Positions 61,101-62,819 of a stretch of DNA of 64,000 nucleotides are shown here, in pieces. A program made the translations under genes and the position numbers. The notes under the pieces were generated by a model that saw nothing but the letters and a program-made list of their open reading frames with translations, did no database searches and was not told where the DNA came from. This DNA is from Escherichia coli (lineage in GTDB: Bacteria; Pseudomonadota; Gammaproteobacteria; Enterobacterales; Enterobacteriaceae): assembly GCF_003018255.1 (NCBI RefSeq), contig NZ_CP027440.1, one strand, 5' to 3'. Each line of letters starts with the position of its first letter. The first letter of the stretch is position 1.

Positions 61101-62819
61101 ACTTAAAGAGTAATGCGCCAGGCCGCGTTCAATGAGGATCTCTTTGGTGGTGGTGACGCGATACGCCGCGCCGTCACTGGCGGAGACGGTTAACAAATAG
61201 CGGCTCGGTTTATCGGCGGCGGGGAGATTTAAAGCCACATGACCGCTATCATCGGACACCGTTTCGCTGCCTTCCAGCGACACGGGAAAACGTCCGGCAT
61301 AACGCAAATCGTTACCGACCATTGATAATTGCTGAGCGCGCAAACTTAACTGCACGCGGGCATCTTTTACCGGCTCACCATCCGGGTAAAGCAGTTGCAG
61401 TTTGCCGCTGACCGCTTCGCCAGTTTTGAACTCTTTTTTGTCGAGAGCTAAACCAATCTCGAAATGTGGCTTGATATAGTTGGCTACGCGAAAACTACTG
61501 CTATAGACCTGATTGCGGTAAGCCAGGCGTAACTCATAACCTCCGGCAACGGCATTTTCTGGCAGGCGGAAACTCCCCTGCCCGCCATTGCGCGCATCCA
61601 GCGTGACATTGACGGTTTGCAACAGACTGCCGTTAGCGTCCAGCACCGAAAGCTTCGCCGGGGCGCTGACGATGGGGGATGAATGCAACGGGTCGTGGAA
61701 CTCGCGGCCCATCACTTTGACATCAACACGATCGCCTGCACGATACAGAGGGCGGTCGGTAAAGATATACAAGCGGGTGTTGTAGATTTCGCTTTCGTAG
61801 AAAAAATTCTCGGAGACAAAAACGCCGCCTTCAGCATCTTTACCCAGAATGTATGAACGTTCCGGCGATATATGTTGTAACTGCAAGGTACCGCTGTCAT
61901 CGGTCACACCGCGGGTCATCACGCCAAGACCGTCAGTCCACAAGATCTCTGATCCCGGCTTCGCTTCCCCCTGTTTTTTACCCGCGGTCCACACCAGAAG
62001 CTCGTTACCTGACACTTTGCTAAGCGCCACGGTATCGGAAACAAACACCACCGTCGTCGCCCGATACCCACCTACCATCGCCTCGACGAGGTACAGCCCC
62101 GGCTCTTGCTTGCCTAGCGGAATATAGATGTTGCCCGGCTGCGGCGAGATGAAATTGCTGGATGCGCCTTCCAGTTTTACCCCTTGCTGCGGCTCGACCG
62201 GTTTAGCCTGCCATAATGGGTAACGGAACTGTTCCACCAGGGGATATTTTTTCAGCGGTGAAAACTGGTTGTTCTGTACATAACGGGAAGGTTTAATAAT
62301 GGCATTACCGAGCTGTAATTCGGGTAACGCCTGAGTCACATTCTGCCGAGACTGAGAAGAAAAAGTACGCTGCATCACGCGGCGAGATTTGCCGTACCAG
62401 TTATCCCACAGCCAGGTCAGCGTATTGTTCAGCCCGTCGCCCAAATATTGCGGTTGCACCACAATGCGATGCAGGTTTTTCTGCTGGCGCAAAAATGCCA
62501 TCGGGTCAGGAATACGATACAGGCGAACGTCCACGCCGCCGTACTCTTCCATCTGATAGCGTCGATAATCACGCCCCGGCGCTTCCAGTCGCACTTTCGT
62601 CTCTTCACTGCTGCTAAAACTGCTGTCAGCGAGCAAAAAGAATGTTCCCCCGGCGGGCGGCGCATAGTTGCTGGAAGGAAGCGAATCATCAGCATTAGCA
62701 AGCCCTGTTCCCACAAGAGACAGGGACAAGCACGCTGCTATCGCGCCAGAAAATTTAAACGATAAATGCCAATGAAATTGGGATTGGAATCGTTGGGTAT
62801 CCATCGGGTGTCCTTCCAT
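58200..62819 (-). CDS. yfaS: alpha-2-macroglobulin-family protein YfaS, full length
   Basis: Uninterrupted ORF of 1539 codons from the first ATG (second ATG at 62804 would give 1534 aa); N-terminal hydrophobic signal-like segment; no CxEQ thioester motif found on my reading (M-L-P-E-Q at about residues 1041-1045). Confidence 0.85.

Follow-up and report, generated by a model that had tools for sequence, protein, structure and literature searches.

Where does translation of yfaS begin in Escherichia coli, and does the gene truly overlap its upstream neighbour, yfaT? The question arises in a 64,000-nucleotide stretch of E. coli DNA (contig NZ_CP027440.1 of assembly GCF_003018255.1), which we refer to as the window and in which both genes lie on the minus strand. 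The yfaT coding sequence (62738..63361) runs from an ATG at 63361 to a TAG at 62740-62738; its product matches DUF1175, now named MagC (PF06672; Pfam, E=5.6e-58), and its bounds agree with the RefSeq coordinates and with the conserved C-terminus of the protein. The yfaS frame is offset by +2 relative to that of yfaT and is open from 62858. A preliminary description of the window placed the end of yfaT at 62738, the ATG codons able to give YfaS a signal peptide at 62819 and 62804, and a TTG at about codon 31 (62729, counting from 62819), all of which hold, and it proposed an unusually long out-of-frame overlap of the two genes, which the comparisons below support. We consider it likely, from the pattern of sequence conservation, that yfaS is translated from the ATG at 62804, 67 nt inside yfaT, by way of a Shine-Dalgarno (SD) sequence written in yfaT codons, and that the overlap is real. 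The proposed coding sequence (58200..62804, minus strand, ending in a TAA at 58202-58200) would encode a type II alpha-2-macroglobulin of 1534 aa, homologous to MagD.

The suggestion that one annotated terminus is wrong has a divided answer. The termini on which the preliminary description relied stand: in an alignment of 23 homologues the YfaT C-terminus (...DTRWIPxxxNPNFIGxYRLNFLxR*) is kept through its final residue, which argues that the annotated yfaT stop is right. The RefSeq start of yfaS, however, is probably wrong. The Prokaryotic Genome Annotation Pipeline (PGAP) starts the gene at GTG 62714 (62712..62714, minus strand), 23 nt past the yfaT stop, giving a protein of 1504 aa in all four RefSeq records checked (L001, L002, L210, and L211). 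No NCBIfam model matches either YfaS or YfaT, so no curated family model stands behind this start, and its choice appears to be an effect of avoiding long overlaps.

Candidate start sites of yfaS

Five in-frame codons are candidates for the start of yfaS: ATG 62819, ATG 62804, the non-canonical ATA 62741, TTG 62729, and GTG 62714. The two ATGs would produce overlaps of 82 nt and 67 nt respectively, and we refer to them, and to their counterparts in other genomes, by their positions relative to the end of the yfaT stop codon, -82 and -67; ATA 62741 is at -4. The 67-nt overlap (62738..62804, minus strand) covers the final 22 codons of yfaT with its stop, as well as the opening 22 codons of yfaS. 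The -67 ATG (62802..62804, minus strand) is assembled from the third base of a yfaT arginine codon (CGA) and the TG of the tryptophan codon (TGG) that follows, and 6 nt upstream of it the yfaT codons for Trp-Lys-Asp contain the sequence GGAAGGA (62811..62817, minus strand), an SD site. The predicted duplex with the anti-SD sequence is -5.5 kcal/mol with a 6-nt spacer, the four remaining candidates scoring between 0 and -1.5, and among the five an SD site is confined to ATG 62804.

A downstream start embedded in an upstream gene is already known as a kind, and several gene callers already choose the -67 start of yfaS. The choice made for E. coli is the start that yields MDTQRF... (P0287, 359 member sequences), and that for Aeromonas is the -67 start; the protein search with the YfaS N-terminus matched short fragments only, and it informs the starts chosen by gene callers rather than the frequencies of full-length start variants. 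An exact sequence look-up of the start variants of the window's YfaS gave no match. We found no published description of an internal yfaS start in the literature on yfaS, yfaT, or macroglobulin, where name searches are swamped by unrelated matches.

Conservation of the proposed embedded start

Homologues of YfaT were aligned and used to collect 80 loci from different species, mostly of Pseudomonas but including E. albertii, Superficieibacter, Enterobacillus, and Edaphovirga, so that with the window the comparison covers 81 loci. In all 80, the macroglobulin frame is at +2 to that of yfaT and contains no stop for 118 nt or more ahead of the yfaT stop. The ATG at -67 is present in 81 of 81 loci, and its SD context, TGGAAGGACACCCG-ATG, is identical in 67 of them. 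Conservation of both reading frames through the overlap had been put forward as a check on its reality, and both are kept: the yfaS frame is free of stops throughout the overlap in all 81 loci, and the C-terminus of YfaT is conserved. Both termini of the overlap, the end of YfaT and the -67 start, thus agree with those of their orthologues. The -67 ATG is also found in Salmonella, in Aeromonas, in locus L085, and in contigs of the Pseudomonas aeruginosa type.

These comparisons also bear on the choice between the two ATGs. The one at -82 (62817..62819, minus strand), from which YfaS would have 1539 aa, comes before any other ATG in the open frame, it is present in 77 of the 81 loci, and the yfaT threonine codon ACA that forms it is fixed in all 72 loci that have a threonine there. 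It lacks an SD site, however, is replaced by CTG in the remaining four loci, and in Salmonella (L083) is followed by an in-frame stop, at -73, before the -67 ATG is reached; its conserved A could instead be part of the stretch immediately preceding the SD sequence. We regard initiation at ATG 62819 as quite improbable, and ATG 62804 is the better supported of the two and the best-supported start overall.

More distant relatives mark how far this conservation reaches. L085, with 54% YfaT identity, retains an ATG at -67 with an SD of GGGAGGA, and L087, with 49% identity, has a GTG at -67 together with GGAAGGA. Two other loci with about 50% YfaT identity, L086 and L088, have a stop at -43 in the yfaS frame, with starts at an ATGA and at +5 respectively, and in L089 the frame is open but the homologous position is a TTG without an SD, the start being at an ATGA. 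The arginine codon homologous to the start-forming CGA is an ordinary CGT or CGC in L086, L088, and L089, none of which has an SD-led start at that point. These three act as natural negative controls, and in them YfaT itself has no need of the rare codons found in the other loci. In L005, L014, L030, L085, and L087, no start other than that at -67 gives a signal peptide, and in four of these (L014, L030, L085, and L087) the hydrophobic core is itself partly encoded within the overlap.

Codon choice at the 3' end of yfaT

A further sign of the embedded start lies in the synonymous sites of yfaT. A block of 12 yfaT codons, numbered -29 to -18 (62795..62830, minus strand; CAA CTT ATG ACA TGG AAG GAC ACC CGA TGG ATA CCC), has a mean synonymous codon entropy of 0.18 bits, as against 0.79 bits for 124 informative columns upstream (Mann-Whitney p=1.4e-5), and it contains the lowest 10-column window of yfaT (sliding-window permutation p=1e-4); these tests set columns against columns, all of which share one phylogeny. 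The base A occupies 44% of third positions in the block and 6.8% upstream, and the fixed A-ending codons are rare ones, in high-GC genomes. Because the -67 ATG takes its first base from the arginine codon and its other two from the tryptophan codon, it needs CGA, and CGA is present in 81 of 81 loci at that position, while making up 1.5% of arginine codons elsewhere in the yfaT set. Rare codons are fixed nearby as well: the isoleucine codon ATA (76/81, against 1.4% elsewhere), the threonine codon ACA (72/72, against 5.4%), and the glutamine codon CAA (81/81, against 23%). We interpret the 12-codon block, from these patterns of codon use, as the region, embedded in yfaT, where translation of yfaS is initiated.

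The overlapped codons show a second type of constraint. At several of the 21 overlapped yfaT codons a T-ending synonymous codon would put a stop into the yfaS frame, and none of 333 such opportunities is taken, whereas T-ending codons occur at 260 of 1265 harmless positions of the same stretch (20.6%) and at 158 of 1984 equivalent risk positions upstream (8.0%). None of the 81 loci has a yfaS-frame stop within the overlap, as against 2 to 44 of the 81 for seven other 21-codon windows read in the same frame. The open frame is also kept in the 71 loci that have an ATG at -4, a pattern difficult to account for if those loci were not also translated from -67. Synonymous sites of the first frame thus reveal selection on the second, both in the entropy of the block and in the avoidance of stops, and the conservation at these sites of ATG, SD, and open frame together across the 81 loci indicates an arrangement beyond chance. 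The preliminary description went further in saying that the overlap constrains both proteins, and in that form the idea is not supported: the constraint on yfaT is limited to the 12-codon block and the avoidance of stops, and the other 17 overlapped codons vary at background levels (0.77 versus 0.79 bits).

Could the invariant block instead be mainly a binding site for CsrA/RsmA, or a rare-codon pause near the C-terminus of YfaT? The sequence CAUGGAAGGACA (62809-62820) contains two overlapping motifs of the A(N)GGA type, AUGGA and AAGGA, which resemble CsrA/RsmA sites and lie directly over the yfaS SD; in P. aeruginosa the synthesis of MagD is governed by RetS and RsmA, and the magA leader has been reported as a direct RsmA target (PMC3735191). 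A pause would account for the fact that every fixed synonymous codon in the block is a rare one. Neither proposal, however, explains the 21 stop-free yfaS-frame codons downstream of the block, the intact genes that are under selection and have no other start, or the change of ATG to GTG in L087, which preserves the capacity to start; moreover, CsrA bound over the SD would supplement the start site, not replace it. We think it very unlikely that either of them is the main reason for the block. A conserved RNA structure at the block was considered and rejected, as the predicted folding energy is -4.6 kcal/mol and there is neither covariation nor a conserved hairpin; a search of Rfam gave no match at E<=1. 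No slippery heptamer that would allow a programmed frameshift, and with it a YfaT-YfaS fusion, was seen when the block was read by eye.

The predicted signal sequence of YfaS

The choice of start would determine whether YfaS is exported. From ATG 62804, an n/h/c heuristic predicts a presequence of 38 residues (62691..62804, minus strand), with a polar n-region containing arginine and lysine, a hydrophobic core, and an AxA cleavage site, the predicted signal-peptidase site being ANA|DD after 62691; this aligns with the predicted site VQA|EDT of MagD (PMC3735191, Table 2). The core and the charged n-region are retained together only from ATG 62804 or ATG 62819, and by the same heuristic the signal peptide characteristic of the YfaS class is therefore present with either of these starts and missing from the RefSeq protein. 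As the preliminary description had foreseen, the signal peptide is lost with a start past the end of yfaT: TTG 62729 leaves 13 residues ahead of ANA|DD and GTG 62714 leaves 8. Expressing or modelling the RefSeq protein would consequently give a cytoplasmic form.

We note a lipobox-like IAAC at residues 22-25 (62730-62741) in the presequences of E. coli and E. albertii; a lipoprotein reading of it was rejected, as only a short run of hydrophobic residues comes before it and the cysteine is not conserved outside Escherichia.

A case can nonetheless be made that the overlap is an artefact of annotation, with yfaS starting past the yfaT stop at GTG 62714 or TTG 62729 and the upstream ATGs being by-products of a conserved YfaT sequence. 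PGAP's consistent choice of the GTG is in its favour, as is a survey of 715 co-directional gene overlaps of more than 60 bp, none of which was real, most of them arising where the downstream gene had been extended at its 5' end (PMC2478687). Yet neither post-stop codon has an SD or leaves room for a signal peptide, and the studied member of the family is periplasmic; their equivalents are not conserved even in E. albertii, and Superficieibacter L005 has no ATG, GTG, or TTG at all from -67 to +150. The by-product view also fails on the fixed rare CGA, ATA, ACA, and CAA codons and on the avoidance of stops. We consider an artefact of this kind extremely unlikely.

The same survey proposed that all co-directional overlaps of more than 60 bp be flagged as errors, the longest real case being holD-rimI, at less than 60 bp (PMC2478687). 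Like yfaT-yfaS, the holD-rimI overlap is co-directional and out of frame, is conserved among related genera, and has both termini in agreement with orthologues; it differs in length from the 67 nt of yfaT-yfaS, whose conservation crosses orders and reaches from Pseudomonadales to Enterobacterales. The yfaT-yfaS overlap is therefore probably one of the rare co-directional overlaps above 60 nt that are real, and it looks like a true exception to the artefact rule, on the evidence of synonymous sites at 81 loci and of relatives with about 50% YfaT identity.

The stop/start junction at -4

In 71 of the 81 loci the yfaT stop is a TGA preceded by an A, and the resulting ATGA provides an in-frame macroglobulin start at -4, without an SD. 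The A ahead of the stop is itself under selection, the last sense codon of yfaT ending in A in 76 of 81 loci against a background of 6.8%. At -4, ATAG is found in E. coli, E. albertii, and Superficieibacter L005, and ATAA in Superficieibacter L004, in a Pseudomonas metagenome-assembled genome (L045), and in Salmonella; four further loci have CTG. A single change of G to A retains the yfaT stop yet abolishes the ATG at -4, and the ATA of the window (62739..62741, minus strand) has the appearance of a relic of the ATGA.

This junction bears on the proposal, made in the preliminary description, that yfaS is strictly coupled to the translation of yfaT. Short coupling overlaps such as ATGA and TAATG, of which the yfaA/yfaT junction is an example, share with yfaT-yfaS the embedding of the downstream start in the upstream gene. 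The yfaS start differs in lying 67 nt before the yfaT stop and in having its own SD, and in the window no start overlaps or abuts the stop, the sequence being cgATAG with ATA at 62741. As a terminating ribosome would need to move backward by 64 nt, termination-reinitiation at -67 is unlikely. Strict coupling as first stated is not supported; the ATGA of 71 relatives has been destroyed in E. coli, and the SD at -67 points to independent initiation.

ATA is known to initiate translation very weakly. Even so, ribosomes terminating at the TAG might start yfaS at low efficiency from the old coupling site, ATA 62741, or the gene might be poorly expressed and decaying in E. coli. The apparent selection for an ATG at -4 in relatives and the retention of ATA in E. 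coli would fit with this, as would the yfaS pseudogenes of K-12 and one O157:H7 strain. The presequence from ATA 62741 has no charged n-region, however, and no SD precedes it, and L014, L030, and L085 have a CTG at -4 with no alternative start close by. The ratio of nonsynonymous to synonymous substitution rates (omega) is 0.06 for yfaS between E. coli and E. albertii (synonymous divergence, dS, 0.81) and 0.097 for the macroglobulin gene between the two Superficieibacter loci, which points to a well-maintained, expressed gene. Such strong purifying selection in lineages that have no ATG at -4 argues that their macroglobulin genes are functional and that the upstream start is needed, and we regard use of the old coupling site, or decay, as highly doubtful.

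Comparison with the Pseudomonas aeruginosa mag operon

The closest experimental point of reference is the magABCDEF operon of P. aeruginosa, in which MagC is PA4490 and MagD is PA4489 (PMC3735191). YfaS has Pfam matches to MG2 (1.2e-25), A2M_BRD (3e-18), A2M (3.2e-12), and bMG10 (7.2e-6), and its 1534 residues contain no match to C.EQ, the CxEQ thioester motif; its two cysteines are at residue 25, within the presequence, and residue 1189. The set of macroglobulin domains and the lack of CxEQ place it among the type II bacterial alpha-2-macroglobulins, the class of MagD. The two systems share an orthologous pair, DUF1175/MagC followed by a type II alpha-2-macroglobulin without CxEQ, as well as their neighbours, with yfaA-yfaT-yfaS-yfaQ-yfaP corresponding to magB-F by position and by COG/Pfam family.

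P. aeruginosa-type contigs (L099, L139, and L142) were recovered by scanning metagenomes for a published magC primer, and they match both primers and both published signal-peptide sites. They have catggaaggacacccgATG at -67, with an SD, an ATGA at -4, and an ATG at +26, each in the magD frame with no stop in between, such that three in-frame ATGs precede the MagD hydrophobic core. P. aeruginosa differs in this respect from E. coli, which has an ATG at neither -4 nor +26, and a start at +26 has no overlap with magC. The published signal peptide, of a predicted 26 residues ending ..AAVQA|EDT (PMC3735191), corresponds to the +26 start, and a start at -67 would lengthen the presequence to 57 residues; gene callers for P. 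aeruginosa are split between +26 and -4. Two papers on the Mag system, PMC3735191 among them, make no mention of an internal start or of the overlap.

MagD is periplasmic in P. aeruginosa, and MagC has never been detected there by mass spectrometry (PMC3735191), an observation that fits with a MagD start that is independent of MagC translation.

A model for initiation of yfaS

The anatomy of the overlap, its conservation, the constraint at synonymous sites, the avoidance of stops, and the purifying selection on yfaS are established, and they can be assembled into a plausible course of events. We propose that 30S subunits bind the SD (62817-62811) inside yfaT and initiate at 62804. The overlap, in which the end of yfaT is read at +2, would then encode the first 22 residues of YfaS; polar and positively charged, these would act as the n-region of a Sec signal peptide of 38 residues, and the sequence just past the yfaT stop would supply its hydrophobic core and cleavage site. 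An independent start of this type could let YfaS/MagD be made in excess of YfaT/MagC.

The embedded initiation region is probably both ancestral and selected in the MagC-MagD pair, in a clade spanning Pseudomonas, Aeromonas, and several Enterobacterales. In most Pseudomonas loci the ATGA at -4 would add a second, coupled start suited to termination-reinitiation, and in Escherichia, Salmonella, and Superficieibacter a change of the stop from TGA to TAA or TAG would have removed it; with the -4 ATG lost, the -67 ATG would be left as the only canonical start yielding an exported protein. That the MagC-MagD family as a whole has two selected in-frame starts, one SD-led at -67 that makes MagD in excess and is perhaps gated by CsrA/RsmA, and the other reinitiating at ATGA, is a more tentative proposal, to which we give a little less than even weight. 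If it is correct, the overlap would be a real exception, found in more than one order, to the treatment of co-directional overlaps above 60 nt as artefacts, and the P. aeruginosa MagD precursor would have an unrecognised N-terminal extension of 31 residues beyond its annotated 26-residue signal peptide. A MagC-independent start would also explain abundant MagD alongside undetectable MagC, and the internal start puts two GGA motifs over the ribosome-binding site of MagD in an RsmA-controlled operon, which could add a layer of regulation.

Several observations weigh against initiation at ATG 62804. The 81 loci, with 70-99% nucleotide identity, are mostly from Pseudomonas. At a mean of 0.36 over 16 loci, against 0.39 overall, the SD/ATG region is not predicted to be unpaired more often than its surroundings, although three of five enteric loci gave values of 0.48-0.62; for the window the figures are 0.48 and 0.38. 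Signal peptides were judged by a simple heuristic rather than by a trained predictor, and the predicted YfaS presequence has a long n-region, of 21 residues, whose net charge is just +1. An mCherry fusion was exported in P. aeruginosa with no more of MagD than its first 64 residues, counted from the annotated downstream start (PMC3735191), so that the N-terminal extension is not required for export in that organism. The presence of yfaS pseudogenes in K-12 and one O157:H7 strain indicates that the gene is dispensable in some E. coli. Finally, no experimental mapping of the yfaS or yfaT start by initiation profiling or N-terminomics was found, and the 2026 TRAINSPOTTER supplements have no entry for yfaS, yfaT, yfaA, or yfaQ.

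The operon and its neighbours

The operon has the order yfaA-yfaT-yfaS-yfaQ-yfaP in its RefSeq context, and the stretch is present in 5392 of 5426 complete E. coli genomes; the window shares 99.8% identity with strain 104. As is typical of the YfaS class, it is genes for DUF2138, DUF1175, YfaQ, and YfaP that adjoin yfaS, rather than pbpC, and the same neighbours are present at related loci. The yfaA/yfaT junction is an ATGA overlap at 63361-63358, and the TAA of yfaS directly abuts the GTG start of yfaQ (junction 58197-58202). A consensus scan for an internal promoter gave none.

The gene is annotated as a pseudogene in K-12 XL1-Blue (L002), because of an internal stop, and in O157:H7 G5295 (L211), because of a frameshift and an internal stop. 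The occurrence of pseudogenes in two unrelated E. coli lineages, with an intact gene in the window, suggests repeated recent loss.

The operon is carried by only a few genera of Enterobacterales, and the nearest species-level relatives of the E. coli version are mostly in Pseudomonas, the proteins of which share 70-78% identity with E. coli YfaT; this patchy distribution suggests horizontal transfer. YfaT itself has a weak, sub-threshold match to NlpC/P60 (E=3.8e-4; 20.8 bits, with a cut-off of 23), and Cys55, within the motif DCAGLVRF, and His148 and His160 are invariant across the 23-sequence alignment, which together hint that MagC-type proteins may have a cysteine peptidase/amidase fold.

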